A stretch of 64,000 nucleotides of DNA from Gynurincola endophyticus (GCF_003991195.1 NZ_RCWL01000005.1:197078-261077), one strand, 5' to 3'. Shown: positions 10 to 62,099, numbered from the stretch's first letter. Numbers and translations: made by a program. Notes: a model not told the origin generated them from the sequence alone.

Positions 10-2691
10 TTGAGCAATTCAGATTTTGAGTTCTCTATGGCTGATACCAATAGTGGCAGTATTACTTTCACCGAGGCAGGTGTGGGTAACAATCTTGCAC
101 TTACGGAAGAAGAATTGCTCACAAACCTCAACAAAGTTCAGACGGAAAATGAGCTAAGAGAAGACGAAATATCACCTGCCATTGAAAAGCTTTGGTACAA
201 TGAAGACGCATCCGTAAAAGGCGTTCTGGAAGGTAAAACGGTAGTAACCGAGTTTCCCAACTACTCCGTAGAAATGGAAACCGGAACAGGCAAAACCTAT
301 GTGTATCTCCGTTCTGTTTACGAACTCAACAAGGTGTATGGCTTTAAGAAGTTTGTAATTGTAGTTCCTTCCGTGGCTATCCGTGAAGGAGTTATCAAAT
401 CCCTCCAAATCACCTTCGATCACTTTCAGGAAATCTACGAAAATCAACCTGCGGATTACAAGGTCTATGATTCAGGCCGTTTGTCAGACTTGGGCAATTT
501 TGCCAAAAGCAACGCCATACAAATTTTAGTAATCAATATTGATTCCTTCACCAAAGATGCCAACGTCATCAATCAGGTAAGAGAATCAGGCATAAAGCCC
601 ATAGAGTACATTCAGAAATCCAATCCGATTGTGATTATAGACGAGCCGCAGAATATGGAAACGGATATTCGAAAGCGAGCTATTGCCAATCTAAACCCCC
701 TATTTACACTGAGGTATTCTGCTACACACAAAAACCTTTACAACCTGGTCTATAAGCTTGACCCGGTGAAGGCGTATGATTTAGGCTTGGTAAAGCAAAT
801 TGAGGTTGATTCCGTTATAGCCCGAAACGATAGTTCAGGAGCCTTTATTAGTGTAGATGGTTTCCGTATGGCTAAGAAATCAGTAACTGCCAAGGTTTCA
901 ATATTTGTCAATGAAAAAACAGGTGTACAGAAGAAACAAGTTTCCGCAAATGTTGGAGACGACCTTTATAAGCTTTCTAAAAATTGGGACATATACAAGG
1001 ACGGCTATGTAATCAATGAGATAGATGCCGACAATCAGTTCATTGAATTTTCAAGTGGTCAAATTGTCTATCAGGGTCAAGCCGTAGGGGGTCTTACCGA
1101 CCAGATACTTAGGGAAATGGTAGATGCCACGGTAGAGAACCACTTCAAGAAGGAGAAAGAGTTGCAGGGCAAAGGAATCAAGGTCTTATCAATCTTTTTT
1201 ATCGACCGTGTGGCAAACTACCGTGAGTATGATGATAGCGGAAACACCGTACAGGGGAAGTTTGCCGAATGGTTTGAAGAAAGCTATACCAAATGGCAAA
1301 GTATGCCTGCTTACAGGGGTTTAATGAGCTTCAAAGCTAAAGACGTGCATGATGGATATTTCAGCCAGGATAAAGCAGGTAAATACAAAGACACCAAAGA
1401 AACTCGAACTACCAAAGCTGATGATGATACCTTCAACCTAATCATGCGAGATAAGGAAAGGCTATTGGATGAAAAAGTGCCTCTCCGATTCATTTTCAGT
1501 CACTCCGCATTGCGTGAAGGTTGGGACAATCCCAATGTATTCCAAATCTGTACGCTTAACGAAACCAAGTCGGATATAAAGAAACGACAGGAAATCGGAA
1601 GAGGTCTCCGCTTATGCGTTGACCAAACCGGAGCAAGAAACCTTGACCGTGCTATCAATAGGCTTACTGTCATCGCCAATGAAGCCTATGAATCATTCTC
1701 TAAAGCCTTACAAAAGGAAATAGAGGAAGATTGTGGCGTGAAGTTCGAAGGCCGTATCAAAAATGCAAGAGCAAGAACAAGCGTAAAACTCAAAGACAAA
1801 TGGATGGAGGATGCGCTATTCCTTGAGCTTTGGGAGAAAATAAGAGCTAAAACAGAATATAAAGTTGATTATAGCACCGAAGAGCTAATTGCAAATTGTG
1901 TGGCTGCATTGCAAGCAATGCCCCCTATCGAACGTCCTGTAATCTACCGTGAAAAGAATGTAGCAAAATTCGTTAGGGATGCCAAAGGCAAGCTGATTGA
2001 ATTAGGCGGAGAGCAGAAAGGCTCAAAGGAGAAAATGGTAAAGGACACCAATTATGAAATCCCTGATTTCATTGCTTATATCCAGTCTAAAACAGAGCTT
2101 ACCCGAGATACCATTACCCAAATCGTATTGAACTCAAACCGATTGGGCGAAATCTTTAACAACCCTCAGTTATTCATGGATAGCGTGGTACGCATCATCA
2201 AACATGAATTTGACCGAATCAAGATCAATGGCATCCAATATGAAAAGATTGCCGGACAGGTCTATGAAATGAAGTTGTTTGAATCCGCAGAAATTGAGCA
2301 GTATTTAGAAAACCTGATAGAGGTTAAGAAACAAGCCAAAACGCTTTACAACTATGTGGCCATTGATTCACTCAGTTCACCGGAACGCAGGTTTGCCGAA
2401 GATTGCGAAAACAGGGATGATATACTTTTCTATGTAAAGCTTCCAAGAACATTTGTGGTCAAAACTCCAATTGGTCCCTACAATCCTGATTGGGCATTGA
2501 TTAAGAAAGAGGACGGTGAAGAAACCAAAATCTACTTTGTAGCTGAAACCAAAGACCCTAAAGCAGCAAAAGACCGCACCTTATTAAGAGATAGCGAGCG
2601 ATTGAAAATAGCATGTGCAGAAAAGCATTTTGAAGTAATAGATCATGTGAATTACCGTGTAGTTGGCTCAGTGAGTGATTTGAAAGTTTGA
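10..2691 (+). CDS. Type III restriction Res-like SF2 helicase fused to C-terminal PD-(D/E)xK nuclease (probably 5-prime partial; frame open to window edge)
   Basis: Walker A METGTGKTYV; motif II IIDEPQN; motif VI QEIGRGLRL; C-terminal PD-(D/E)xK YNPDWAL...VAETK; reading frame open upstream of position 10, listed start is TTG. Confidence 0.7.
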   Translation: MSNSDFEFSMADTNSGSITFTEAGVGNNLALTEEELLTNLNKVQTENELREDEISPAIEKLWYNEDASVKGVLEGKTVVTEFPNYSVEMETGTGKTYVYLRSVYELNKVYGFKKFVIVVPSVAIREGVIKSLQITFDHFQEIYENQPADYKVYDSGRLSDLGNFAKSNAIQILVINIDSFTKDANVINQVRESGIKPIEYIQKSNPIVIIDEPQNMETDIRKRAIANLNPLFTLRYSATHKNLYNLVYKLDPVKAYDLGLVKQIEVDSVIARNDSSGAFISVDGFRMAKKSVTAKVSIFVNEKTGVQKKQVSANVGDDLYKLSKNWDIYKDGYVINEIDADNQFIEFSSGQIVYQGQAVGGLTDQILREMVDATVENHFKKEKELQGKGIKVLSIFFIDRVANYREYDDSGNTVQGKFAEWFEESYTKWQSMPAYRGLMSFKAKDVHDGYFSQDKAGKYKDTKETRTTKADDDTFNLIMRDKERLLDEKVPLRFIFSHSALREGWDNPNVFQICTLNETKSDIKKRQEIGRGLRLCVDQTGARNLDRAINRLTVIANEAYESFSKALQKEIEEDCGVKFEGRIKNARARTSVKLKDKWMEDALFLELWEKIRAKTEYKVDYSTEELIANCVAALQAMPPIERPVIYREKNVAKFVRDAKGKLIELGGEQKGSKEKMVKDTNYEIPDFIAYIQSKTELTRDTITQIVLNSNRLGEIFNNPQLFMDSVVRIIKHEFDRIKINGIQYEKIAGQVYEMKLFESAEIEQYLENLIEVKKQAKTLYNYVAIDSLSSPERRFAEDCENRDDILFYVKLPRTFVVKTPIGPYNPDWALIKKEDGEETKIYFVAETKDPKAAKDRTLLRDSERLKIACAEKHFEVIDHVNYRVVGSVSDLKV

Positions 2692-5600
2692 AACAACCAG
2701 CATTGACCCGTTTTGATATGGCAACAGAGAAACAATTTTTAACCAGGCTACAGGAGATTAAGCAAAGAGACGTGGAAGTTTTGCTTAAAAAGGCGTACCG
2801 TGGTATTTGGGAAACAGCAATTAAGAAGTATTCCGACAGTGCCCACTTCGTTTATGAATTGCTGCAGAACGCAGATGATACAAAAGCCACTTGGGTTGAT
2901 TTTCGCCTTGAAGAAGACGGACTTTGGTTTAAGCACAATGGCTCTGTTCGCTTCTCCATATCAGACCCGGACAATGAAGATGAAGATTCAGAAACTGGCA
3001 ACCTTGGCCATATAAACGCCATTACTTCCATTGGCAATTCAACCAAGATTGATGAACAAAAAATCGGAAAGTTTGGAATAGGCTTCAAAGCGGTTTTTGC
3101 TTACAGCATGTCTCCGCACATTTATGATGATAATTTCAACTTCAAACTGGAAAACTACATTGTGCCCAATGAAATTGAATCCTTGAATGGCCAGAGGGCA
3201 GCAGGTGAAACAGTTTTCTACTTCCCTTTTAATCACATTTCAAAGTCGCCAGAGGATGCCTATACCGAGATTGAGGACAAATTAGATTCACTCTTTCAAC
3301 CTATTTTATTCCTTACCAATCTTCAAAAGATAACTTGGAAATCCAATGAGAAAGAAGGCATCTATTCAAAGCGAGCATTAAAAACAGAACAGTTCGACAA
3401 TATCCGAGCTGAGTTAATGGAGGTTGAAAGCGTAGAAAATGAAGTCAATAAAAAAGAATTGATATGGTTATTCTCTACTGGCGTTTCACACAAGCAGCTT
3501 AAATCCCACCACCGCATCTATGTGGGTTTCTTTGTTCTCGATCAAAAGGAACTGGAAACTGGATATACCTATGAAGCATTTTGCTTCTTTCCAACCAAAG
3601 AAGAAACCAAGTTAGGATTTGTTATTCAGGCCCCATTCCTTTTGACAGATAGTAGAGAGGGAATAAAAGCAGGTGAGCAATGGAATGTGGAAATCATGCA
3701 GCTTGCGGCAAAGCTTGCTGCCAATTCTTTACCGATACTCAAAACCATTGGTGAAAGGGATAAAACCTACCTACTCAACGACAGTATTTTAGAACTGATT
3801 CCATACAAGGAAAGTGATTTTTCAGACGTAGGTAGTAAAGCGAAAATTTCATTCAAACCCTTCTATACCGAAATCCTAAAGAAGTTTCAAGCCGACCAAT
3901 TACTGCCTGGCAGAAATGGGAAGTACTACAAAACTGCAAAGTCATATTGGGCATCAGATCCCGAGTTAGCAGAACTCTTTTCCGACCAACAAATCAGCAA
4001 GCTAATGGGCAACCCAGATTCAGGATTGGTGTTCGTAAGCAAGGGACAGAAGCAACTTAACCAAGCGAATAAGACCTTAGAAAGCTATATCAATTCAATC
4101 ATTAACGACACCTTAGACCCTAAAAAACTTCTGAGGAGAATTGATGCTTCTTTCATGGAAGCACAATCAGATGAATGGTTATTGAAATTCTATGCCTATT
4201 TGGGAGGTCGAAAATCTCTTTGGGACGATAAAGAGAAGCTTGCTCAAAAACGACCAATCCTGCTAAATCAAGACAGAAAGGCCGTTGTACCCTTCAATGA
4301 TGATTTAACAGCACCAAATATTTTTCTACCTTCTGAAAGGGCAACAAGCTACGATACCATTTACAAGCCATTTACAGAGGATGAAGAAGCCCTGGACTTC
4401 TTCAAGGGTTTGGGTATTGGTAAACCCGACTTACGAGCTGAAATCTTCAAGACCATAATTCCGCAATACAAGAATGGGTTTAACTATGATGATAAGGACA
4501 AAATCTTAGCCCACTTCGATTCTTTCTTATCCTACTATGATGCTTGCCCGGCTTCTCTCCAAAGTGACTATCTCGATAAGCTCCAAGAGACTTGTTTCAT
4601 AGCATCCCGAAAAGCCAGTGACCCTGATACAATTTACTTTTGCTTCCCTGAGTCCGTTTACATTCCAAGTGAAAAGCTCAACAAATACTTTGCTAACGCA
4701 AAGGAGGTATATATTTTGGATGAAGATTACTATTTGGATTTTATCCATAGTCCTCGCAAAAGCTCGTTCTATTCATTTCTTTCGGCCTTAGGTTGCAGCA
4801 ATCAACCCCGTTTGATAGATAGGGAATTAGAATCCAACTACGAGAACAAGGAAAGATTTGGTCTTGAAGAAATTGAAGTATCACAAACCTATGTCTCTAA
4901 TCAAACTATTACAGATACCATTCTGGAAGGAATAGAGGAAGCAGTATCAAACATCAATCCCGAACTATCAGCCCTGATTTGGGAATACATGTTATTCCAT
5001 GTACATGGTAAGTCGTCTTACTCGCTCGAATCAAGTATCATGGGCAACTTTCGATACGTCCCCAAATGGAACCAATATCCAAAGTCCCAAAAGTTTGAAT
5101 CCACACTATCATCTATTCTCAAAAATGATAAATGGCTATATGATACAGAGGGCAATTTAAAATCAGCATCAGAAATTCAAAGAGAAGACCTAAACGAAAT
5201 CTACACTTCACAGGATTTTGACATTTCTGCATTCCTTGAATTTTTAGGAATTGAAAGCCCTGAAGATGAATTAGACCTCTCCGAGGAACAACGAGCAGCT
5301 TACCTGCTTGGCAAAAAACTACAAGAGGAAGGAATCACTGAAGAAGAATTAGCAGAGGCATTGAGCATGATAAAGGCTAAAAAGAAGTCCGCAGGTGCTC
5401 AGGGCAATCCCAATACTGATGAAGAAGAAGACTTCATGGATGATGCCATTGAAGACACCTTAGACCGCCTTAAAAAGGGAATCAAAAAGAAGCGAAAGGC
5501 CAGAGCTGAAAATCAAGATGAAGAAACTCAAAAAGAAGAGCAGGAATCTCCTGAATCAATGGCAGATCAGGATGAATACACAAAACCTTCTGTTGACCTT

Positions 5601-7535
5601 CAAAAGAAGATTGACAAGCTAAAGGAACAGACAGAAGCTCAAATTGAAGACCTTACCCGAATTGAGAAACTGAACGAGATTGTTGATGAATCTGAAATGT
5701 ATTCCTATGCTTGGTTCAAAGCTTTGCTTGAACTGGAATACCTGAGTAGTTCAGAATCCAACACTCAAGGAAAAGAAATATCAATCCAATTCACTAAAGC
5801 AGAAAAAGAACCGGGTACAGAAAGGACATTGATTCTCAAGCATCCGAACAGATATATCCCTCAATCCATTGAGGATATTGGAGACCTGCAAATTCGCTTG
5901 TATCATGGTGAAGAATCCAAGACCGTAACCGTGGAGGTTGTGAGTGTTAAAGAATATACCCTTCGGGCAAAGCTGAAAAAGTCTGCCGACATTTCAGAGA
6001 TTGACCTATCTAAGGTAAACCGAATAGTCATTGACATAAAGAATCCTGTTTTCATTCTTGAAGAACTTAGAAAAGCCTTCAATCAACTTGGCTTAGAGGA
6101 TGATTATAATCTACAGCAAAACCTTCCAGAGGATATTCGATTCATATTTGGCCCTCCCGGTACAGGTAAAACAACCTATCTCGCAACCAATGAGATTATA
6201 CCTCTTATGCAGCAGGAAGAAAACCTCAAAGTGCTAGTACTTACACCAACCAATAAATCAGCAGACGTTCTTACAAAGCGTATTATTGAAAAAATGGGTG
6301 ATGATGAAACCTATCACCATTGGCTTCTCCGCTTTGGAAATACAAGTGATGAATCACTGGAAAATAGCTCGGTTGTAATTGATAAAGCGTTCGACATTAG
6401 AACCAAGCCCAAGAATACCACAATAACCACAATTGCGAGATTTGCTTACGACTATTTCCAACCCGAAATCCATGATGAACGCCTGCACCTGAAATTTCTT
6501 GAATGGGACTACATTATCATTGATGAAGCTTCAATGGTGAACTTGGCCAGTATAGCTTACGTCCTTTATCAAAAGCCAGATGCAAAATTTGTAATAGCAG
6601 GAGATCCTTTCCAGATTCAACCAATTACACTTATTGACCATTGGAAGGATATGAATATCTACAGCATGGTCAATCTCGACAGATTCGTAGAGCCAACAAC
6701 TGTTCCCCATGAATTTGAAATAGTTAACCTACGCAAGCAATATAGGGCAGTTCCCACCATTGGAAATGTTTTCAGTCACTTCACTTACAATGGCATTCTC
6801 GAACACCATAGAACAAGTACAGAGCAAAAGCCATTGACCATATCCGGCTTTGATTTCAAGGACATTAACATTATCAAATTTCCAGTAGCAAAGTTTGAAA
6901 GCATTTACAAGCCAAATACGCTTAACAAATCAAACTATCAGGTCTATTCAGCTTTGTTCACGGTTGAGTTCGCCCAGTCACTTGCTTTTCAGATTCAATC
7001 AAGCCACAAAGACAAATTCAGAATTGGAATCATTTGTCCTTACAAGGCTCAAGCTACTCTAATTGAAAAGCTCCTTGCTCAACAATTTGAAGACACTGAT
7101 AAGGTAGAAATCCTTATCGGGACTATTCACGGCTTCCAAGGTGATGAATGTGATATTATCATTTCGATTTTTAACCCGCCATACTCGATAAGCAAACACC
7201 CGGGTATGTTCCTCAATAAGCAGAACATACTCAATGTATCCATTAGTCGGGCAAGAGATTATTTATTCATCATAATGCCAGACGACAACACGCAGGATAT
7301 TGAGAACCTATATAAAATCAAGAAAATAGAAAGATTGATTTATCGCCATGCTCCTAACAATCACTCAGTTTACGAATCCACGGAGATTGAGGAAATTATG
7401 TTTGGCAGCGATACCTACATTTATGACAACTCCTTCGCTACTTCTCACCAAACTGTAAATGTGTATTCAAAACCAGAGCGGAAGTATGAAGTCCGTTGTG
7501 AAGAGGTAGCTGTTGACGTTCAAATTAAACAATGA
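2688..7535 (+). CDS. Large multidomain protein: N-terminal sacsin/GHKL-type (HATPase_c-like) ATPase, acidic/basic coiled-coil linker, C-terminal Upf1/DNA2-like SF1B helicase (AAA_11/AAA_12-like)
   Basis: N-box ELLQNADD and G2-box GKFGIGFKAVF near N-terminus; SF1B motifs FIFGPPGTGKTT (I), IIIDEASMV (II), VIAGDPFQIQP (III), LRKQYRAVP (IV), IGIICPYKAQ (V), GTIHGFQGDECDIII (VI); start overlaps stop of upstream gene by 4 bp (TTG at 2688; alternative ATG at 2718). Confidence 0.7.
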   Translation: MKQPALTRFDMATEKQFLTRLQEIKQRDVEVLLKKAYRGIWETAIKKYSDSAHFVYELLQNADDTKATWVDFRLEEDGLWFKHNGSVRFSISDPDNEDEDSETGNLGHINAITSIGNSTKIDEQKIGKFGIGFKAVFAYSMSPHIYDDNFNFKLENYIVPNEIESLNGQRAAGETVFYFPFNHISKSPEDAYTEIEDKLDSLFQPILFLTNLQKITWKSNEKEGIYSKRALKTEQFDNIRAELMEVESVENEVNKKELIWLFSTGVSHKQLKSHHRIYVGFFVLDQKELETGYTYEAFCFFPTKEETKLGFVIQAPFLLTDSREGIKAGEQWNVEIMQLAAKLAANSLPILKTIGERDKTYLLNDSILELIPYKESDFSDVGSKAKISFKPFYTEILKKFQADQLLPGRNGKYYKTAKSYWASDPELAELFSDQQISKLMGNPDSGLVFVSKGQKQLNQANKTLESYINSIINDTLDPKKLLRRIDASFMEAQSDEWLLKFYAYLGGRKSLWDDKEKLAQKRPILLNQDRKAVVPFNDDLTAPNIFLPSERATSYDTIYKPFTEDEEALDFFKGLGIGKPDLRAEIFKTIIPQYKNGFNYDDKDKILAHFDSFLSYYDACPASLQSDYLDKLQETCFIASRKASDPDTIYFCFPESVYIPSEKLNKYFANAKEVYILDEDYYLDFIHSPRKSSFYSFLSALGCSNQPRLIDRELESNYENKERFGLEEIEVSQTYVSNQTITDTILEGIEEAVSNINPELSALIWEYMLFHVHGKSSYSLESSIMGNFRYVPKWNQYPKSQKFESTLSSILKNDKWLYDTEGNLKSASEIQREDLNEIYTSQDFDISAFLEFLGIESPEDELDLSEEQRAAYLLGKKLQEEGITEEELAEALSMIKAKKKSAGAQGNPNTDEEEDFMDDAIEDTLDRLKKGIKKKRKARAENQDEETQKEEQESPESMADQDEYTKPSVDLQKKIDKLKEQTEAQIEDLTRIEKLNEIVDESEMYSYAWFKALLELEYLSSSESNTQGKEISIQFTKAEKEPGTERTLILKHPNRYIPQSIEDIGDLQIRLYHGEESKTVTVEVVSVKEYTLRAKLKKSADISEIDLSKVNRIVIDIKNPVFILEELRKAFNQLGLEDDYNLQQNLPEDIRFIFGPPGTGKTTYLATNEIIPLMQQEENLKVLVLTPTNKSADVLTKRIIEKMGDDETYHHWLLRFGNTSDESLENSSVVIDKAFDIRTKPKNTTITTIARFAYDYFQPEIHDERLHLKFLEWDYIIIDEASMVNLASIAYVLYQKPDAKFVIAGDPFQIQPITLIDHWKDMNIYSMVNLDRFVEPTTVPHEFEIVNLRKQYRAVPTIGNVFSHFTYNGILEHHRTSTEQKPLTISGFDFKDINIIKFPVAKFESIYKPNTLNKSNYQVYSALFTVEFAQSLAFQIQSSHKDKFRIGIICPYKAQATLIEKLLAQQFEDTDKVEILIGTIHGFQGDECDIIISIFNPPYSISKHPGMFLNKQNILNVSISRARDYLFIIMPDDNTQDIENLYKIKKIERLIYRHAPNNHSVYESTEIEEIMFGSDTYIYDNSFATSHQTVNVYSKPERKYEVRCEEVAVDVQIKQ

Positions 7536-7595: not shown

Positions 7596-9695
7596 ATGGC
7601 AAAGCACTGTTTCAACATACTAACATTCAATCATCCGAGCGAATCGCTCACCTTCTATTTTTCCGAGAAGGAGCAAGAAGGAACTACACGAATTTATCAT
7701 TCATTGGTTCCTGATGAGGTCATTGATAAGTATGCAGAACAGGAACATTACTACACTTCATTTTGCCAAGAAAAAGAAGGGTTTATTCCGGTTACTAAGC
7801 CAACTACACCAACCTATGAGAAAATCACTAACGAAGAAGGAATTGAAAAATCAGTTCAGGTTTCCAATTCCGCATTGTCTTCATCCATTCTCAAACGTTA
7901 CTACAATTCACTAATTCATAACCATTTCAAGTCAAAGGGCTGTTTGGTCAAACCTAACTTTGTCAGCGATACAGAAGTTTGGTTGCCAAGCGATACACAA
8001 GACAAGGAAGGGATATACAAAACCTTTGACCGTTTTTCATTGAAGGTGCAGTTCAGAACAGTTTCCAATAGTCTTGAATTATTGGTCACATTTGAAGGCA
8101 AGTCAAAGATTTTTAAAACTCCTGTATCAGAACTTTTTGAAGAAGTACCTGTAAGGGCATTCAATTGGGTGGTCTATGAAAAAGGACTACACCGCTTTGA
8201 TGAATTGCCAGATGATGGGAAAAGAAATTACGATAAGGTTTATCCTGTTTGGAATTTTGAAATAAGGGATGCTTTGCACCAGGAGACAGAAGCCCCGGAC
8301 AAGACGAACAAATACAGGAAGTTCAAAACGGCCATTGATAAATTTTACAGGGAGCAGCTTAATGCAGCCGAGTTCAAGGCCATCATTCCGCTTTCATCTA
8401 AAGGGTTTATTACAGTTGATGAAGTCCGCATCGGTTCAATTGAAAAGTCCAGCAACAAACTCGTATTTGGAAATCAAAAGCTGCACCATGTACCGTATTA
8501 TGGCATTACAGAAAATGGTCCTTTCGAGTTAAGCCCATCATCAAAGATTCATTTCTTTTTTATTCTCCATGAAGATGATAGAGAAGTAGCTGCCAAGATT
8601 CACAACTACTTTAATGGCAAACTCAACGGCTTTAGAGGGCTATCAAAATTCATTCATACACCGTATCATCCAGATAAAGAACTCGCAATCTATTTCAAGG
8701 ATAGGGATAACCCTTGGCCGGAACTGTATGAGCAAATCAATGACAAGGACTTTGATACCGACATTCAGCACATAGCTATTTACATTTCCCCAATCAGCAA
8801 GAATGTTCCAGTCAAATCTCAGAGGTTGATTTACTACAAGCTGAAAGAGCTACTATTGAAAAAAGGAGTTTCCTCTCAGGTGATAGATCCTGACAAAGTG
8901 ATTACCAACGACAAGTATCATTTCAGCTTGCCAAACATCGCAATAGCCATTCTCGCAAAGCTCAATGGCACTCCGTGGAGGTTGGACACAAAGCTGAAGA
9001 ATGAATTGATTGTTGGAGTTGGAGCATTCAAGCACACAGAAGTTGACATCCAATATATCGGCAGTGCTTTCAGTTTCTCCAATACAGGGAAATTCAACCG
9101 ATTTGAATGCTTTCAGAAAGACCAAACAAAAGAGTTGGCAGGTTCAATTCTAAGAGCAGTTAAAGACTATGTGAATGTAAATACAGGAATCAGAAGGCTT
9201 GTAATTCACTTCTACAAAGACATGAGTAGAGAGGAAGTAGAACCGATTGAGAACGGCCTGAAAGAATTGGACTTGAACATTCCGGTCTTTATCGTCACCA
9301 TCAACAAAACGGAATCATCCGATATTGTTGCCTTTGATTTGGACTGGAAAGATTTGATGCCCGTAAGTGGCACTTTTATCAAATTAGGCTACAACAGATT
9401 TCTACTTTTCAACAATACCAGGTATTCAGCATCAGAGTTCAATTTCAATGATGGATTTTCATTTCCAGTAAAGCTCAAGATAAATTGCTCCAATCCTGAA
9501 TTGGTTGATGATTACAAAACAGTAAAGGAGCTTATCGATCAAGTATATCAGTTCAGTCGCATGTACTGGAAGTCAGTAAGACAACAAAATTTGCCCGTTA
9601 CAATCAAGTACCCTGAAATGGTTGCAGAAATGCTCCCTTACTTTGAAGGCAACGAGATTCCTGATTACGGTAAAGACAATCTTTGGTTCTTATGA
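7596..9695 (+). CDS. Prokaryotic Argonaute-like protein, long form with catalytically inactive PIWI (long-B-like)
   Basis: MID motif LIYYKLKELLLKKGVSSQVI...NIAIAILAKLNGTPWRL (Y-x3-K...Q...K-LNG, the Argonaute 5-prime-phosphate pocket / KLGG motif); position of first catalytic Asp reads IVGVGAF instead of GxDV; ~380 aa N-terminal region compatible with N-L1-PAZ-L2. Confidence 0.65.
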   Translation: MAKHCFNILTFNHPSESLTFYFSEKEQEGTTRIYHSLVPDEVIDKYAEQEHYYTSFCQEKEGFIPVTKPTTPTYEKITNEEGIEKSVQVSNSALSSSILKRYYNSLIHNHFKSKGCLVKPNFVSDTEVWLPSDTQDKEGIYKTFDRFSLKVQFRTVSNSLELLVTFEGKSKIFKTPVSELFEEVPVRAFNWVVYEKGLHRFDELPDDGKRNYDKVYPVWNFEIRDALHQETEAPDKTNKYRKFKTAIDKFYREQLNAAEFKAIIPLSSKGFITVDEVRIGSIEKSSNKLVFGNQKLHHVPYYGITENGPFELSPSSKIHFFFILHEDDREVAAKIHNYFNGKLNGFRGLSKFIHTPYHPDKELAIYFKDRDNPWPELYEQINDKDFDTDIQHIAIYISPISKNVPVKSQRLIYYKLKELLLKKGVSSQVIDPDKVITNDKYHFSLPNIAIAILAKLNGTPWRLDTKLKNELIVGVGAFKHTEVDIQYIGSAFSFSNTGKFNRFECFQKDQTKELAGSILRAVKDYVNVNTGIRRLVIHFYKDMSREEVEPIENGLKELDLNIPVFIVTINKTESSDIVAFDLDWKDLMPVSGTFIKLGYNRFLLFNNTRYSASEFNFNDGFSFPVKLKINCSNPELVDDYKTVKELIDQVYQFSRMYWKSVRQQNLPVTIKYPEMVAEMLPYFEGNEIPDYGKDNLWFL

Positions 9696-29898: not shown

Positions 29899-30918
29899 CT
29901 ACTCTTTTCTGGTATAATTCATCACCATTTTCTGCATTCTCCTGATAATACGGTCACGCAAAAGTCGTGGAGCCATTACTTTCATCGATTCTCCAAATCC
30001 CAGAATTTCGCGTTCGAGTTCGAAGTTGGGAATAACATCTATCCTGAACCATACAGATCCGTCTTCTTCTGCTTTAATAATTTGTTGTGAATGATGTAAA
30101 GGTTTTGTTTCTACATAAGGAGCATTTTTCGCATCCACCAACAGTATCACTTTTTGCGGCCGGTCTTTTTCAGACTTGGTTACGCCAATCAGATCAGAAT
30201 AGTAACGGTCAAACGAAACACCTTTATAAGGTTTAAAATCCTTTTTAGACATTTCATGTACTTCCTGAATACGATCAAGTGCAAGTGTCAGTAAGGTTTG
30301 ATTTCGATTGTTCCGGCAAATAAGAAACCACCGGTTTCTGTATTCTTTCAGTAAATACGGGTGATAAATATCCTGTGTCGGACTTTGGCTTTTAAATGAT
30401 TTGTATTTTATCAATACCGGTATTTCTTCCCTGATGGCTTTATGCAAAACCGGAATACATTTCAACCCATGTACCAGCGGGTTTTCTTCAATCTGAATAC
30501 TGATTTTTGATTCATCCTGATAATGGGTAACGTTTGCTTCTAACCTTGCGATCAGGTCATTCATCTCTTCAAAGTAAGAAAAACCATTAAAGTATTTAAG
30601 GATGCCGATAGCGTCTTTCATTTTCTCCACATCATTGAGCGACAAGGGAGATTGTGTAATGCTATAGGCGGGGTCGCTATATTCGTAATACTTCTTGTCT
30701 TTAATAACAATTGGTGCTCCATAACCGAGATTAGCATCCCGCATAAACTGAATATCATATTGTATGGTTCTTTTGCTGATAGAGGTAATTCCCTCCCGTT
30801 CATAAAGCTCTTCTGCTACTTTATTTACCAGGTTGTCTAAAGTCCATTTGCGATTTCTTCTGCGCAGGCAATTGTCGATAATTTTATAGCGCATCAACGC
30901 TAATTTATTACTGGCCAT
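29899..30918 (-). CDS. WYL-domain transcriptional regulator (N-terminal wHTH, central WYL, C-terminal WCX-like)
   Basis: HTH MRYKIIDNCLRRR...TIQYDIQFM; WYL motif HPYLLKEYRNRWFLICRN...LALDRIQEV. Confidence 0.75.
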   Translation of the reverse strand: MASNKLALMRYKIIDNCLRRRNRKWTLDNLVNKVAEELYEREGITSISKRTIQYDIQFMRDANLGYGAPIVIKDKKYYEYSDPAYSITQSPLSLNDVEKMKDAIGILKYFNGFSYFEEMNDLIARLEANVTHYQDESKISIQIEENPLVHGLKCIPVLHKAIREEIPVLIKYKSFKSQSPTQDIYHPYLLKEYRNRWFLICRNNRNQTLLTLALDRIQEVHEMSKKDFKPYKGVSFDRYYSDLIGVTKSEKDRPQKVILLVDAKNAPYVETKPLHHSQQIIKAEEDGSVWFRIDVIPNFELEREILGFGESMKVMAPRLLRDRIIRRMQKMVMNYTRKE

Positions 30919-30949: not shown

Positions 30950-30968
30950 TGCGCAATCAATTTGCGTA
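30950..30968. promoter_or_regulatory. Near-palindromic candidate operator TGCGCAAT-caa-TTTGCGTA
   Basis: Imperfect inverted repeat in WYL/rtcB divergent intergenic region. Confidence 0.4.
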
Positions 30969-31057
30969 GAAAATGAATGAGTATAATTTTTTTAATTATA
31001 TTTTATTGATATTCACGTATATATGATTGTTCAAGTTTTTTTGTAAAAAATATCTAT

Positions 31058-31076
31058 TACGCAATCGTATTGCGTA
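31058..31076. promoter_or_regulatory. Perfect palindromic candidate operator TACGCAAT-cgt-ATTGCGTA
   Basis: 8-bp perfect arms, 3-bp spacer; same half-site as 30950-30968. Confidence 0.45.
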
Positions 31077-31204
31077 CTTGTAGATGCATTTTTGCATAGA
31101 ACAACAGCAATATACTGTTGTTTCAGGCTGATAGTTTTTCATACTGTTTTTTAAAGCAGAATAGTATTGCCCGGTTGGTTACAATATTCTATTTGAAAAG
31201 GAGG

Positions 31205-31285
31205 TCAGCTCCGGTATACGTGTTGCAGGTTCGAGTCCTGCCTCTTTGTAAAAAGAGTATCTCAATTGGTAGAGAAGTATTGATT
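31205..31285 (+). ncRNA. tRNA-like (Y-RNA/YrlA-like) non-coding element: T-arm, acceptor-like stem closed by GTAA tetraloop, U8-A9, D-arm; no anticodon arm
   Basis: gcagg-TTCGAGT-cctgc (31225-31241); ctcttt-gtaa-aaagag (31242-31257); ta; tctc-aattggta-gaga (31260-31275); gtat (31277-80) can pair with atac (31216-19). Confidence 0.35.
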
Positions 31286-31454
31286 ATCACAAACGAAAAG
31301 CTTTTTGAACCGTGCTTTGTGAATTTTATTTCACCATTGGTTCATCCTTAGCAGCAAAGAACAAATGATGAAAAGATGCGTTTCATGATTCCTTCTTTAT
31401 TCCGGAACACTGGTGAGCACCGTTTGAAAAGCTTATTTAAACAAAACTGATTTT

Positions 31455-32546
31455 ATGAAAAGAATTAAAATTAATAAACACGAGATAGGATTAGTCATTA
31501 AAGACAGGGCCTATGTTCGGATTTTAAAGGAAGGGAAATATTGGATTTTTAATGAAGAGGTATCTATTTTTAACAGATTCTCAGAATTTACTTTAGACCT
31601 TTGGATTGACCAGCTAATGCTGGTAGACGGTTTCAGGGAAGAAGTTGAAATGGTAGATGTTCCGTTGAATCATCTGGCACTGGTTTTTGTAGATCAAAAG
31701 TTAACCTATGTGTATACCGCAGGTAAACATGCGGTTTGGAAATCAAACCTGCCTGTTCGCGTTCAATATGAAAGTATTGCAGACTATCATATCGGCGAAT
31801 CAGTAGAACGTGAATTGTTAAATGTTGTGCCTCTAAAAAATTACATTCGTGAACTGGATATCGCAGCACATGAAAAAGCAGTTTTACTGGTTGACGGAAA
31901 AATGATGGGTCTGTTAGATGCCGGAATATATACCTATTGGAAAAATATCAATAAAATAGAAGTGAAGCGTGTGGATATGCGGGTTCGAAACATTGAATTG
32001 ACAGGACAAGAACTGTTAACCAAAGATAAGGCACAGATTCGCATGAACTTTGTAGCACAATATCAGGTAAGGGATGTGGAAAAGGCTTTATTGGAGAACA
32101 GCGATTACGAACGCCAGTTATATGTAATGTTACAAATTGCTTTGCGTAATTATATAGGCTTGCAAAGCCTGGATGAGTTGATGTTGAGTAAAGATCAGGT
32201 GAGCGAAGCTGTAAATGCCAGTATGGCATCAACTGGTGCAATGTTAGGCATTGAATTGTTACATTCAGGATGTAAAGATTTGATTTTACCGGGTGAAATC
32301 CGTGATATCATGAATCAGGTATTGGTAGCAGAGAAAAAAGCACAGGCAAATGTTATTACCCGCAGGGAAGAAACAGCTTCCACCCGAAGCTTACTAAATA
32401 CTGCGAAATTACTGGAAGAAAATGCGATGTTGTACAAGTTGAAAGAGTTGGAATACGTGGAGCGGATGGCAGAAAAAATTTCAGAGGTTTCGCTGAATGG
32501 AAACGGTCAGTTATTAGACCAATTAAAAACCTTATTTGTAAAATAG
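31455..32546 (+). CDS. SPFH/band-7 (slipin/stomatin-like) domain protein
   Basis: SPFH core with ...RMNFVAQYQVRDVEKAL... and C-terminal coiled coil; 3-bp gap to rtcB. Confidence 0.75.
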   Translation: MKRIKINKHEIGLVIKDRAYVRILKEGKYWIFNEEVSIFNRFSEFTLDLWIDQLMLVDGFREEVEMVDVPLNHLALVFVDQKLTYVYTAGKHAVWKSNLPVRVQYESIADYHIGESVERELLNVVPLKNYIRELDIAAHEKAVLLVDGKMMGLLDAGIYTYWKNINKIEVKRVDMRVRNIELTGQELLTKDKAQIRMNFVAQYQVRDVEKALLENSDYERQLYVMLQIALRNYIGLQSLDELMLSKDQVSEAVNASMASTGAMLGIELLHSGCKDLILPGEIRDIMNQVLVAEKKAQANVITRREETASTRSLLNTAKLLEENAMLYKLKELEYVERMAEKISEVSLNGNGQLLDQLKTLFVK

Positions 32547-32548
32547 TT

Positions 32549-33964
32549 ATGGAAAGAATAAACGGAAATGATTTGTTGAATTTGGGTTATGACGAGAATA
32601 AAATGTTAGGAATCGCCCTGCAAATCAATAAAAAAAGAACCGGCTATACACGTCAGGAAATGTTAGATCATTATAAGGCAGTGTTAGAAAATCCTGAAGT
32701 GTATAAAGAGGATAAAGTATTTAAAACCTTAGCGGTTGCATTGTTAAATAAAGAAGAGTTATTGGCTAAAACAATTCCTTTACGTGAAACAGCAGAAACC
32801 TACCGTGTATATGGTGCTGAGCAGATTGAGCAGGGAGCTATCGACCAAATGAATACTGCAATGTTACTTCCTGTAACAGTTGCCGGCGCCTTAATGCCGG
32901 ATGCTCATCAGGGGTATGGGTTGCCGATCGGAGGTGTATTAGCTACTAATAATGCAGTTATTCCTTATGGGGTGGGAGTTGATATCGGCTGCAGAATGGC
33001 CCTTTCAGTTTTTGATCTGCCTTCTGCATTGATTGAAACAAAACTTGATTGGTTAACCGACATTATTATCGATCACACTGCTTTTGGTGCCGGAAACGGA
33101 TTTAGGGGAAAAGAAAAATCTGACCACAGCGTTTTAGAGAATCCGCTTTTTGCAGAACATGCTTTTATTAAAAACCTGAAAGATAAAGCATGGACTCAAT
33201 TAGGTTCATCTGGCGGAGGAAACCACTTTGTTGAGTTTGGGATGATGCAATTTGCAGAAGATGATGAAGTGCTGGGAATTAAAAAAGGGGAATACCTTGC
33301 TTTGTTGACACACTCGGGTTCGAGAGGATTAGGAGCTACTATTGCTGATCATTATACCAGGCTGGCGAAACAAATTTGTGAATTGCCTTATAAAGCACAG
33401 AATCTTGCTTATCTGGATTTAAATTCGGAAGCCGGACAGGAATATTGGTTAGCAATGAACCTGGCAGGTGATTATGCCTCTGCAAATCATGAAATCATTC
33501 ACGCAAAAATTACAAAGGCATTAGGTGCTGAAGTATTGGCGAAGGTAGAGAACCATCATAATTTTGCCTGGAAGGAAGTACTGAACGGAGAAGAAGTAAT
33601 TGTTCACCGTAAAGGTGCTACTCCGGCCGGTAAGGGAGTGATGGGTATCATTCCTGGCTCTATGGCTACTCCGGGGTTTCTGGTAAGAGGAAGAGGAGAA
33701 CCGGAAGCCATTCATTCTGCATCACACGGTGCCGGCCGGTTAATGAGCCGCACGCAGGCAATTAAAACCTATACCAGAGGAACTTTAAATAAAATATTGA
33801 AAGAAGAAGGAATCACCCTGATCGGTTCGGGAATGGATGAAGTGCCGATGGCTTATAAAGACATACATACTGTTATGGCCGAACAAAAAGATCTGGTAGA
33901 TGTTGTGGCAACTTTCCATCCGAAGATTGTTAGAATGGCAGATGACGGAAGTAAGGAAGATTGA
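32549..33964 (+). CDS. rtcB: RNA-splicing ligase RtcB
   Basis: Conserved RtcB motifs HQGYGLPIGGV, GAGNGFRG, GGGNHF, HSGSRGLG, NHHNF, HSASHGAGR. Confidence 0.95.
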   Translation: MERINGNDLLNLGYDENKMLGIALQINKKRTGYTRQEMLDHYKAVLENPEVYKEDKVFKTLAVALLNKEELLAKTIPLRETAETYRVYGAEQIEQGAIDQMNTAMLLPVTVAGALMPDAHQGYGLPIGGVLATNNAVIPYGVGVDIGCRMALSVFDLPSALIETKLDWLTDIIIDHTAFGAGNGFRGKEKSDHSVLENPLFAEHAFIKNLKDKAWTQLGSSGGGNHFVEFGMMQFAEDDEVLGIKKGEYLALLTHSGSRGLGATIADHYTRLAKQICELPYKAQNLAYLDLNSEAGQEYWLAMNLAGDYASANHEIIHAKITKALGAEVLAKVENHHNFAWKEVLNGEEVIVHRKGATPAGKGVMGIIPGSMATPGFLVRGRGEPEAIHSASHGAGRLMSRTQAIKTYTRGTLNKILKEEGITLIGSGMDEVPMAYKDIHTVMAEQKDLVDVVATFHPKIVRMADDGSKED

Positions 33965-58940: not shown

Positions 58941-61900
58941 ATGAAACAAACTGTAGAACTACCAAACTACTGCAGGAGTAAATCGGCATTCAGTAAACCA
59001 TTATTACTTATAATAGCTTTACTGTTTCAATGCACTTTGCTCACACAAACCTTATCTGCACAAAACATTTCAGTATCAGGCCAGGTTGTTGACGAGTCTG
59101 GCAATCCCGTTTCTTTCGCCTCCATAGTGGTGTCGGGAGCTACAGGCGGGGTTCAATCCGATGAAAAAGGAAATTTCACTTTAACGGTTGCTCCAAATGC
59201 AGTTTTATCTATATCTGCTGCAGGATTTGCTTCTCAGGATGTACGTGTTGAGGGCAAAACAACTTTAAAAATTACATTAAAACTACAGGCTGCCTTGGAT
59301 CAGGTAGTAGTGGTGGGATATGGTACCCAACGTAAAAAAGATGTTACCGGTTCGATTGTTTCGGTAGATGAGAAAGTGATTCGTGAGGTTCCTGCTGCGA
59401 GTCTTGACAGAGCATTACAGGGTAGAGTTGCCGGTGTGCAGATTCAATCTTCTTCGAATCAGCCGGGCGGTGGCACACAAATCCGTATTCGCGGTATCCG
59501 TTCAATTTCAGGAAGTAACGATCCGTTTATTGTTCTGGACGGTATTCCTTATGAAGGTAATCTGAATGATATCAATTCTGAAGACATCGCCAGTTTAGAT
59601 GTATTAAAAGATGCATCTGCTACTGCTATTTATGGTTCACGAGGTGCTAACGGTGTTATTCTGATTACTACTAAAAGAGGTAAAAGCGGTAAAGCCAGCA
59701 TCTCTTATAACGGCTATCATGGTATCGGTAAGGCTTTTAATCCTTATCCGGTATATGATGCAACTGAATACCAGGCTATGCGTAATGCTTCTACCTGGAG
59801 TTTAGGATATCTGCCTGATGAAATTCAGGGAATGGCCGACGGTACCAATACCAACTGGCAGGATGTGATGTATCAGAATGCTAACCGTGCCGACCATAAT
59901 ATTTCTGTAACAGGCGGAGCGAATGGCAGTAATTATTCTTTAGGTGCCGGTTATTTTAATGAAACAACTTTAATGCCTGGTGAAGAATTTAAACGCTTCA
60001 CAGCCAGAGCTACTTTAGATATTAAATTGAGTAACAAAGCAAAAATTGGGTTAACCTCTTTAACAAACTACAGCATCAACGAAGGAAGCCAGTTTGTTTC
60101 AGGATCTGCAATGTTCTCTTTACTGGCTATTACGCCACTTACCAAACCGCGTAATGCAGATGGTAGTATCAATAATATTCCATGGGGTAACGTAGATGAC
60201 GTAAACGGTAATTCACGTTATAGCCCACTTTATTTATATGAAAATGAAGGAACATGGGTAGATGAAAACAGAAGAATTCGCAATTTTACCACCTTATATG
60301 GAGAATATGAATTTATTAAAGGATTAAAGTACAGAGTGAATGCCGGGGTAAACCTTGCCCAATCACGCATTGCTACTTTTGTTCCGGGTGATGAGCCTAC
60401 TGCGCCTTCCTATTTCAGACCTGCTCAGGGAAATCAGGCTTCGGTTAATAATAGTGAGTTTTTAAGTTATACTGTTGAACATTTATTATACTGGGATAAA
60501 ACATTTGGCGATCACCGTTTCAATGTAACCGGTATGACTTCTACTCAAAAAGATCACAGCAACAATACTTATATCAGAAAAGATAGTATTGATGCAAACT
60601 TCGTGCAGTGGTATAATCTTGCTATGTCACAACCGGTTTCATCGCTGAATACCTTGTTGGGCGGAGGTGAATCTACTTCAGGGTTGGTTTCTTACATGGC
60701 TCGTTTAAACTATGGTTATAAAGACAAATATATTTTAACAGGTACGATCCGTCATGATAAATCTTCAAGACTTGCACCCGGAAATCAAGGGTTCACTTAT
60801 CCTGCAATCGCTTTAGGATGGAATGTTTCTGAAGAAGATTTTATGATGAATCTTACCTGGATTGATAACCTGAAATTGAGAGCTGGTTATGGTATTACTT
60901 CTAACCAGGCAATTGCTCCTTACTCTTCTCTCGGACGTGTTTCTAATAGCAGCGGAAATAATACGGTGATTTCTTATAACTGGGGGCAGGATCAGATTGT
61001 TACCGGTTATGGAATCACAGCACTTCCTAACAGTTCTTTGAAATGGGAGTTCAGCCGCAACTATAATGTTGGTATTGATTTCGGTTTGTTTAACAACAGA
61101 TTGACCGGTAGTATCGATTGGTACGACGTTTATACCAATAATATCCTTTACAGTGTAACGCTTCCTGTAACGAGTGGTGTAGCCGGTGGTTATACCAGTA
61201 ACGTAGGTGCAATGAGTAATAAGGGTATTGAATTTAATCTGAGCTCAGAAAATATTGTAAGTCCAAGCGGATTTAGCTGGTATACCGATTTCAATATTTA
61301 TCATAACAAAAACAGAATTGAGCACCTTTCTAACAACGTTGAAAGAGATATTGCCAATCAGTTGCACAAAGGATATTCGATGACTGCTATTTTTGATTAT
61401 AATAAACTGGGTATCTGGCAACAACATGAAGCACTGGAAGCTGCACAATACGGATCTATTCCCGGACAGCTGAAATTAGAGGATATCAATAAAGACGGTG
61501 TAATCAATGAAGCTGACCGTCGGGTTATTGGTGATGGTGATGCCAGATGGCAAGGTGGTTTAACCAACCGTTTCGCTTATAAAGGATGGGATCTCAGCAT
61601 TGTAATGACAGGCCGATTCGGTGGTAATCTTGTATCCACTTTACACCAGCCTAACGCTGCTTATATCACAGCACTGGACGGAAGAAGAAATCAGTTAAAA
61701 GTTGATTACTGGACGCCAAACAATCCTACTAATTGGTTCCCTGCACCGCAAACACAAATTTCACCTGTTTCTGACGCCTGGAGAACTTTGGGTTACTATG
61801 ATGCCTCTTACGTGAAACTTAGAAATATCAGCTTAGGATATACATTTAGCAAAGGAGTTGTTGACTATCTGAAAGTTCAATCAATTCGTTTATACTTTAA

Positions 61901-62099
61901 TGCCGATAACCTGGCAGTACTGTATTCGCCTTTTTATAAGTTAACAGGTGTCGACCCTGAAGGTACAGGTACCGGTTACCAGGGAGTAGGATCAAACTAT
62001 AACCTGAGAAACAATAACGGAGGAAACGGATTTGTAACGATCGGTTTATCTACACCTTCAAGAAAAACATTCACTTTTGGTGCTGTTGTAAAATTCTAA
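58941..62099 (+). CDS. susC: SusC/RagA family TonB-linked outer membrane protein
   Basis: N-terminal carboxypeptidase-regulatory-like domain, TonB box region, plug and large barrel; C-terminal F. Confidence 0.9.
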   Translation: MKQTVELPNYCRSKSAFSKPLLLIIALLFQCTLLTQTLSAQNISVSGQVVDESGNPVSFASIVVSGATGGVQSDEKGNFTLTVAPNAVLSISAAGFASQDVRVEGKTTLKITLKLQAALDQVVVVGYGTQRKKDVTGSIVSVDEKVIREVPAASLDRALQGRVAGVQIQSSSNQPGGGTQIRIRGIRSISGSNDPFIVLDGIPYEGNLNDINSEDIASLDVLKDASATAIYGSRGANGVILITTKRGKSGKASISYNGYHGIGKAFNPYPVYDATEYQAMRNASTWSLGYLPDEIQGMADGTNTNWQDVMYQNANRADHNISVTGGANGSNYSLGAGYFNETTLMPGEEFKRFTARATLDIKLSNKAKIGLTSLTNYSINEGSQFVSGSAMFSLLAITPLTKPRNADGSINNIPWGNVDDVNGNSRYSPLYLYENEGTWVDENRRIRNFTTLYGEYEFIKGLKYRVNAGVNLAQSRIATFVPGDEPTAPSYFRPAQGNQASVNNSEFLSYTVEHLLYWDKTFGDHRFNVTGMTSTQKDHSNNTYIRKDSIDANFVQWYNLAMSQPVSSLNTLLGGGESTSGLVSYMARLNYGYKDKYILTGTIRHDKSSRLAPGNQGFTYPAIALGWNVSEEDFMMNLTWIDNLKLRAGYGITSNQAIAPYSSLGRVSNSSGNNTVISYNWGQDQIVTGYGITALPNSSLKWEFSRNYNVGIDFGLFNNRLTGSIDWYDVYTNNILYSVTLPVTSGVAGGYTSNVGAMSNKGIEFNLSSENIVSPSGFSWYTDFNIYHNKNRIEHLSNNVERDIANQLHKGYSMTAIFDYNKLGIWQQHEALEAAQYGSIPGQLKLEDINKDGVINEADRRVIGDGDARWQGGLTNRFAYKGWDLSIVMTGRFGGNLVSTLHQPNAAYITALDGRRNQLKVDYWTPNNPTNWFPAPQTQISPVSDAWRTLGYYDASYVKLRNISLGYTFSKGVVDYLKVQSIRLYFNADNLAVLYSPFYKLTGVDPEGTGTGYQGVGSNYNLRNNNGGNGFVTIGLSTPSRKTFTFGAVVKF

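Follow-up and report, generated by a model that had tools for sequence, protein, structure and literature searches.

A permuted tRNA-like module of the YrlA type forms the middle domain of a structured leader of ∼350 nt (∼31100-31454) that precedes the gene for an SPFH/Band-7 protein in Gynurincola endophyticus. The module (31213-31283, + strand), delimited by a match to the core of the Rfam YrlA model, by a covariance model referred to here as R1 and by covariation, is predicted to be a complete tRNA body with a capped acceptor end and, in place of the anticodon arm, an open 4-bp stem. It was located in a window of 64,000 nt (GCF_003991195.1, NZ_RCWL01000005.1:197078-261077), to the + strand of which all numbering refers, and it recurs ahead of the SPFH gene in most of the related Bacteroidota loci that we have collected. 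The reading of its role that we favor, at a probability of roughly 0.45 and by analogy with the Y RNA of Ro60, is that the leader RNA is the cognate RNA partner of an SPFH scaffold.

RNAs of this kind have been foreseen. As cited by Wang et al. 2018 (10.1101/312249), Burroughs and Aravind 2016 predicted systems in which Band-7/SPFH and RtcB go together with a cognate tRNA-like RNA, and pointed out that YrlA adjoins Band-7 proteins in some genomes; according to the same secondary account some bacteria encode RtcB beside a Band-7 protein and a putative 'band 7-associated tRNA', and a scaffold role was proposed for Band-7/SPFH and Ro/TROVE proteins, whose cognates would be a tRNA-like RNA and Y RNA, respectively. 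Wang et al. add that the Band-7-associated RNA had no experimental validation (10.1101/312249). Because of the 2016 prediction of a tRNA-like RNA by Band-7 and RtcB the window element does not constitute a new class; it is a case of 'YrlA beside Band-7', a kind already predicted computationally at that time, and the locus combines co-oriented SPFH and RtcB genes with a conserved tRNA-like RNA beside the Band-7 gene, as such a system should. The abstract of the 2016 paper reportedly speaks of Rot/TROVE and SPFH/Band-7 proteins as scaffolds whose cognates are Y RNAs and a tRNA-like molecule.

Architecture and conservation of the module

Reading from 5′ to 3′, one strand of the 4-bp closing stem (ATAC, 31216-31219, pairing with GTAT at 31277-31280) is followed by the 5-nt equivalent of the variable loop, GTGTT (31220-31224), by the T arm, GCAGG-TTCGAGT-CCTGC (31225-31241), and by an acceptor-like hairpin, CTCTTT-GTAA-AAAGAG (31242-31257), that is closed by a loop of 4 nt (31248-31251). 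The equivalent of U8/A9, TA (31258-31259), leads into the D arm, TCTC-AATTGGTA-GAGA (31260-31275), and a single A at 31276 takes the place of A26. The parts are arranged in the order T arm, acceptor hairpin, U8/A9, D arm, and the anticodon arm is absent. The T arm, the acceptor-like stem with its GTAA loop, the TA, the D arm and the pairing of the flanks had been recognized in a preliminary description of this DNA, and all are present. The whole tRNA core is represented in 31213-31283, with the elbow between T loop and D loop, the coaxial stack of acceptor and T stems, U8-A14 and the equivalent of G15-C48. In the minimum free energy fold of 31210-31286 the four-way junction is retained and the closing stem is displaced slightly; with a z-score of only -1.74, fold energy alone is unconvincing, and the value for the whole leader, -1.62, is weak as well.

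We regard the comparative data as the decisive support that the element is real. A scan with an alignment of the SPFH protein, one genome being kept per species, gave 80 Bacteroidota loci (81 with the window). The seed of R1 consists of 13 sequences, the window and 12 related loci, with acceptor loops normalized to equal length, and independent matches are those in loci outside the seed; the 67.1 bits that R1 assigns to the window module follow by construction since the window is in the seed. Of the 81 loci, 77 have a strong R1 module on the SPFH strand and no farther than 900 nt ahead of the SPFH start, all 197 R1 matches at E values up to 1 are on the SPFH strand, and two or three modules occur in tandem in 12 loci. 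When 76 modules are aligned, 96.2% of the cells are paired, as compared with 69.7% upon shuffling and 40-49% with slid partners, the fitting of the alignment to the model inflating pair counts somewhat, and in this same model-fitted alignment 19 of 20 pairs, in all four helices, have changed on both sides. T54, T55, C56, A58, the G53-C61 pair, U8, A9, A14, G18, A21 and A26 are invariant or nearly so, as are the G and the C at the equivalents of positions 46 and 48, and because the unpaired positions of the core are preserved to this extent the module is best described as a complete tRNA body.

Conservation in related Bacteroidota had been singled out in the preliminary description as a point to check, and a decayed tRNA gene had been named among the outcomes that would refute the proposal; on both counts the comparison speaks for the module. 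A nonfunctional remnant of a tRNA gene or array could draw on the facts that related loci adjoin tRNA arrays and that R1 also scores the junctions of real tandem tRNAs, at up to ∼49 bits, as false positives. The species-level loci, however, preserve the permuted order in 77 of 81 cases, with compensatory changes in all four helices, the RNA domains on either side are conserved, and tRNA genes are missing from the window and from over 40 module-bearing loci. The conservation data thus exclude a dead tRNA for all practical purposes, leaving it a probability of almost nil. Because ARAGORN calls no tRNA in the entire 64-kb window, the module is also not the junction of two tandem tRNA genes, an assignment that was rejected in the same manner for the more than 40 module-bearing loci that have no tRNA genes.

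Several relatives differ from the window in ways that we record separately. Arrays of 3-15 canonical tRNA genes are located directly upstream of the leader, on the SPFH strand, in 19 of the 80 related loci (L036 1701-2949, L040 734-2035, L048 2044-3159, L050 809-2100, L052 143-2235, L063 550-1588 and 13 more), often accompanied by a gene for a TPR protein, a PrfH-like release factor, an AAA ATPase or a YkuK-type RNase H-like protein; the window has none. In two loci (L036 3512-3640 and L046 3517-3640) the 3′ strand of the acceptor hairpin has two alternative pairing partners, the strand just upstream, which gives the permuted module, and one ∼70 nt downstream, which gives a tRNA-like fold of canonical order that scores 31-40 bits with the Rfam tRNA model. 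Both pairings change in step between the two loci, and the arrangement could be an RNA switch or the trace of a duplication.

Outside the Bacteroidota set, a blastn search of phage genomes with the leader gave no match and a scan of a viral contig collection with the SPFH alignment gave no relatives. A metagenome scan with the leader motif CCTTCTNTATTCCGGAACA returned 12 loci, and since the module is present in none of them these were set aside as chance matches.

Relation to YrlA, to tRNA and to Ro60

In a permissive Rfam search, in which 31000-31500 (501 nt) was compared with all 4227 families, the core of YrlA was the sole significant match, positions 21-89 of the 114 in RF02553 aligning to 31215-31283 with 43.9 bits and an E value of 1.4e-8. 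Because this score is below the gathering score of 69, a default scan of the whole window is silent; at gathering thresholds no match is obtained on the module or in 16 related loci. Nor does any family reach its gathering score elsewhere on the leader, so that genome annotation currently misses this RNA. The comparison with YrlA that the preliminary description had called for therefore recovers the core with high significance but not at the gathering level, and the YrlA-type architecture it had proposed is upheld by the core match together with the covariation of the four helices. Its further expectation, that this is not a canonical tRNA, agrees with the order T, acceptor, D and with the negative outcomes of both ARAGORN and the Rfam tRNA model, which has no match at 31213-31283 even at E values up to 10.

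The match to YrlA does not extend to the parts that concern Ro60. Model positions 1-20 and 90-114, which comprise the terminal strands and the Ro60-binding stem, are unmatched in the window. In a search limited to genomes containing Ro60, Chen et al. 2014 based the definition of YrlA on the tRNA-like domain and a 5′ GNCGAAN0-1G motif that is thought to bind Rsr (PMC4201824). This motif is not found upstream of the module in the window, and a single one of 65 loci has it in that position, in keeping with a background rate of 2%; GGTCCGA, looked for at the same time, is not found either. No TROVE/Ro60 domain was detected in 17 of the 20 window ORFs of at least 330 aa, which are all those from 7.6 kb on bar 58941-62099, the scan having left out the three largest (10-2691, 2688-7535 and 58941-62099), and the earlier statement that no Ro60 gene accompanies rtcB in the window is sustained for the neighboring genes and for this set. 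Within ∼4 kb of the 80 related loci there is likewise no shared gene cluster annotated as TROVE/Ro60. For the 64 kb of genome examined it is likely that the RNA is independent of Ro.

It could be argued that we are dealing with an ordinary, Ro60-dependent YrlA whose rsr gene is located elsewhere in the genome, given that YrlA is the only significant Rfam match and that 64 kb of the genome were examined. We consider this very unlikely, as the match is restricted to positions 21-89 with both strands of the Ro60-binding stem unmatched, the two motifs are missing in the window with the first of them at background in the relatives, and no shared TROVE gene emerges from the scanned window ORFs or from the 80 loci.

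Comparison with known RNAs helps to place the element. With YrlA (RF02553; PMC4201824; 10.1101/312249) it has in common the permuted topology, the conserved nucleotides of the tRNA tertiary structure and an operon with RtcB; unlike YrlA, it has neither the Ro60-binding stem nor the GNCGAA motif, no rsr, expected within ∼2 kb of a YrlA gene, is nearby, and the module sits in a leader ahead of an SPFH gene with other conserved RNA domains on its flanks. The b7a-tRNA is likewise a predicted noncoding RNA next to Band-7/SPFH and RtcB genes that has been proposed as the cognate RNA of a scaffold, and in the definition available from a secondary source it strongly resembles authentic tRNA, whereas the window element is permuted, has no anticodon arm and is detected by neither ARAGORN nor the Rfam tRNA model. 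In two related loci (L065 and L080, 3887-3971 in each) a tRNA-Tyr-like element of canonical order, 30 nt before the SPFH gene, replaces the permuted module. It is called by ARAGORN, scores below the Rfam tRNA threshold, lies just downstream of the same operator and promoter box that are described below for the window, and is probably the published 'b7a-tRNA' form. There is also a resemblance to circularly permuted tRNA genes, in which the 3′ half with the T arm precedes the 5′ half with the D arm and the acceptor strands are joined by a short linker. Such genes, known from the red alga Cyanidioschyzon merolae and other organisms, give transcripts that are circularized and processed into functional, anticodon-bearing tRNAs; the window module, unlike them, is part of an mRNA leader and devoid of an anticodon loop.

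The leader RNA, its promoter and the genes downstream

The SPFH/Band-7 ('slipin') protein of 363 aa (31455-32546, + strand; Pfam Band_7, 6.3e-24) is encoded 172 nt from the module on the same strand and is 100% identical to a slipin family protein of Gynurincola endophyticus (Chitinophagaceae). The adjacent and co-oriented gene for an RtcB RNA ligase of 471 aa (32549-33964, + strand; Pfam RtcB, 2.2e-86) starts 3 nt after the SPFH stop. RtcB follows SPFH in 55 of the 81 loci, and in 25 loci the leader RNA and SPFH are found with no adjacent RtcB, unrelated or convergent genes following instead. Because these 25 loci keep both RNA and SPFH, the RNA tracks SPFH and not RtcB; the association with rtcB in the preliminary description is correct as to the neighborhood in the window but not as to the gene with which the RNA travels. 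From the literature it is known that an SPFH gene lies inside the rtc locus of Pseudomonas aeruginosa and that a slipin gene of Anabaena is co-repressed with rtcB and a tRNA operon. Other genes recur in the loci, namely those for RlaP nucleotidyltransferases, a PrfH-like release factor, a YkuK-type RNase H-like protein, an AAA ATPase and a TPR protein; pairs of RlaP genes ('RNA repair pathway DNA polymerase beta family') come after SPFH or RtcB in 11 loci, L009, L014, L021-L024, L034, L038, L039 and L041 among them.

Divergent from SPFH is the gene of a regulator of 339 aa with WYL and WCX domains (29899-30918, - strand; Pfam WYL 1.4e-11, WCX 1.9e-15), a homologue of which is present in the same divergent position in 40 of the 81 loci. 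The intergenic region contains a perfect palindrome, TACGCAAT-cgt-ATTGCGTA (31058-31076), that overlaps the predicted leader promoter, and an imperfect one, TGCGCAA-tcaat-TTGCGTA (30950-30968), near the start of the regulator gene. Both sites conform to the pattern T[AG]CGCA-N7-TGCG[CT]A, which many genera have in the region between regulator and SPFH and which is probably the operator of the WYL/WCX regulator. The -7 consensus of Bacteroidetes promoters is TAnnTTTG, and a box of the form nAnnTTTG, CATTTTTG (31087-31094, + strand), is held at a fixed spacing to the operator across loci, its end lying exactly 17-18 nt past the operator in 25 of the 43 loci with a strict operator match. Transcription is predicted to start near 31100. 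Apart from the T arm itself we find no terminator-like site between module and ATG, and this, in combination with the operator and the -7 box at fixed spacing, leads us to infer a single regulated transcript of leader, SPFH and rtcB. Four loci (L061, L062, L071 and L072) have three palindrome sites each, and three units of operator and box in some Flavobacteriaceae loci suggest a small regulon.

The preliminary description envisaged a transcript of ∼90-130 nt. The module it pointed to is real, but it is part of the larger leader and not a free-standing gene of 80 nt. In the 5′ domain (31100-31209, + strand) a terminal hairpin (31100-31122) is followed by a branched domain, which 31127-31141 and 31194-31209 close by pairing with each other. 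RNAalifold gives it 37 pairs, 6 of which have changed on both sides, in an alignment of only three sequences, the window and loci L081 and L082, which are those available for the window's short-leader lineage; conservation of the 5′ structure is accordingly suggestive. In the 3′ domain (31297-31435, + strand) a long-range stem of 18 bp (31298-31316 with 31416-31434) encloses three hairpins and a conserved TTCCGG motif near 31401, and a TTCCGG hairpin is found in distant loci as well. Six pairs of this closing stem have changed on both sides in L082, the more distant relative, and G·U pairs have become A-U in L081. The SPFH protein of L081 is 89% identical to that of the window and its intergenic region is more than 90% identical from ∼31060 to the ATG, diverging more toward the regulator gene. 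A small protein encoded by an ORF of 77 aa (31118-31351) was considered and rejected, because comparison with L081 reveals indels of 1 and 2 nt that interrupt the frame and there is no Pfam match. Rich in A and U, the last 20 nt ahead of the ATG remain unpaired in the consensus fold, and no structure that would sequester the start codon was found in the leader.

The window's lineage has the shortest leader, with 172 nt from module to ATG as compared with a median of 396, and an acceptor stem of 3-6 bp. In other Chitinophagaceae the leader is longer and a second module is followed by a true anticodon arm (for example in L043, L063 and L029), and there is the same kind of large 3′ domain, with a GGCTTT-ATTAAA end just before the ATG. 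The layout of the window's 3′ domain, AAAGCC and a GGCTTT that is followed by ATTAAA, along with a TTCCG hairpin, can be recognized in Chitinophagaceae loci. A further hairpin, GAAG-N7-CTTC, with CACC, CATC or CAGC in its loop and the complement of that loop (GGTG, GATG or GCTG) a short distance of a few nucleotides farther 3′, occurs ∼100-150 nt after the first module in eight loci (L029, L043, L044, L045, L063, L070, L073 and L076). It looks like an H-type pseudoknot with apparent covariation and is absent from the window.

The SPFH protein itself is stomatin-like in sequence from residue 131 on. In the AlphaFold2 model (pLDDT 83.8) three five-stranded beta units (∼1-45, 60-110 and 130-175) precede the SPFH domain and a helix of 60 residues, and there is no N-terminal membrane helix; two extra beta units (residues 1-130) occupy the place of the membrane hairpin. 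The lack of a membrane segment and the additional units would fit a soluble scaffold. Pfam at E values up to 10 gives neither a Vault repeat nor any other domain in residues 1-177, and we could identify no RNA-binding domain in the protein. A profile search of the PDB with the SPFH protein returns stomatin and HflK and not MVP, the only solved fold (PDB) that also aligns over the N-terminal beta units. The likeness to MVP is therefore one of fold only, as neither the Pfam nor the PDB profile search finds a sequence match.

Possible roles of the leader RNA

Neither bacterial Y-like RNAs nor the accessory proteins of RtcB operons are known to have an established function. In the reading that we favor, the ∼350-nt RNA would form the 5′ portion of an SPFH-rtcB transcript initiated at the promoter that the putative WYL/WCX operator overlaps and, either as leader or after being cut out of it, would partner the SPFH/Band-7 protein. 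An oligomeric SPFH scaffold would hold the RNA, whose tRNA-shaped handle could gather factors that recognize tRNA at times of tRNA damage, possibly the RtcB ligase in loci that have it and enzymes of tRNA processing or modification. This assignment is put forward because the module, in 77 of the 81 loci, is always on the SPFH strand, because 25 loci have no adjacent RtcB, because L065 and L080 carry a tRNA-Tyr-like element at the same place, and because the literature, as reported by a secondary source (10.1101/312249), proposes a Band-7/SPFH scaffold with a cognate tRNA-like RNA. Against it are the absence of an identified RNA-binding domain, with residues 1-177 empty in Pfam, and the location right before the ORF, which suits a cis-acting leader equally well.

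Such a leader would act as a sensor or decoy and not as a stable partner of SPFH, the module, open at the end of the anticodon stem, resembling a tRNA that has been broken in the anticodon loop; it might be a target of the very tRNA nucleases that set off the response, might titrate them, or might have its fragments sensed by the WYL regulator so that expression of the operon is tuned. WYL domains are known ligand sensors, a role that the title of Makarova et al. 2014 is said to support, and the module is always in the SPFH 5′ leader, downstream of a regulated promoter. The 3-15 spare tRNA genes upstream of the leader in 19 related loci would also be in keeping with a context of tRNA attack. 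In Salmonella, moreover, damaged tRNA fragments induce the rtc operon, and Hughes et al. [quoted passage not shown] With no anticodon loop the module offers most anticodon nucleases no target, the leader shows neither a terminator nor sequestration of the start codon, the 20 nt before the ATG being unpaired, and retention of the RNA with SPFH when RtcB is absent needs an explanation specific to SPFH. On balance we find a sensor or decoy unlikely, though it is the main rival of the partner reading. To a permuted precursor we attach scarcely any weight. In such a scheme the leader would yield a circular RNA or one the size of a tRNA, once RNase P or RNase Z had cut the acceptor loop and RtcB had sealed the other ends, and there are points in its favor: the operon encodes an RNA ligase, the larger leaders of relatives L043, L063 and L029 have a second module and a true anticodon arm, and the YrlA of M. 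smegmatis is a substrate of RNase P to which CCA is added (PMC4201824). The window module, however, lacks an anticodon arm, its acceptor loop has only 4 nt and the acceptor stem in its lineage just 3-6 bp, and 25 loci have the RNA and no adjacent RtcB.

A bolder proposal starts from the predicted structure of the SPFH protein, which might form a soluble, miniature MVP-like cage with the leader as its resident RNA, that is, a Ro60-independent vault- or Ro-like particle that would capture broken tRNAs by means of the module, a mimic of a tRNA opened at the anticodon stem, and hand them to RtcB. Its support consists of the domain order in the AlphaFold2 model and of MVP being the sole PDB fold that covers the N-terminal beta units. 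MVP proceeds from beta repeats through an SPFH-like shoulder to a long helix, and the same order is seen in the model; in the eukaryotic Ro60-Y RNA complex and in the vault (MVP, TEP1 and vault RNA) a ring or cage protein is combined with a small structured RNA, and TEP1 and Ro60 have a TROVE domain in common. The window protein has no sequence similarity to MVP and just two extra beta units, and its RNA is unrelated to vault RNA. We rate this particle as rather improbable; if it exists, the scaffolds of bacterial RNA repair and the vaults of eukaryotes would be linked in evolution.

Together with the related loci, the locus is attractive as a compact, apparently Ro60-free system that consists of a regulator with its probable operator, a structured leader with a tRNA-shaped domain, a predicted soluble SPFH protein and a ligase. 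It offers a well-delimited and apparently widespread test case for an RNA that is currently lacking from Rfam, and because carriers include culturable genera such as Pedobacter and Sphingobacterium, the idea of an SPFH scaffold with a tRNA-mimic cofactor is directly testable.

Elsewhere in the window, a gene for a Piwi-domain (prokaryotic Argonaute-like) protein (7596-9695, + strand) comes after two ORFs of 893 and 1615 aa (10-2691 and 2688-7535, respectively), and this region may be a defence locus.
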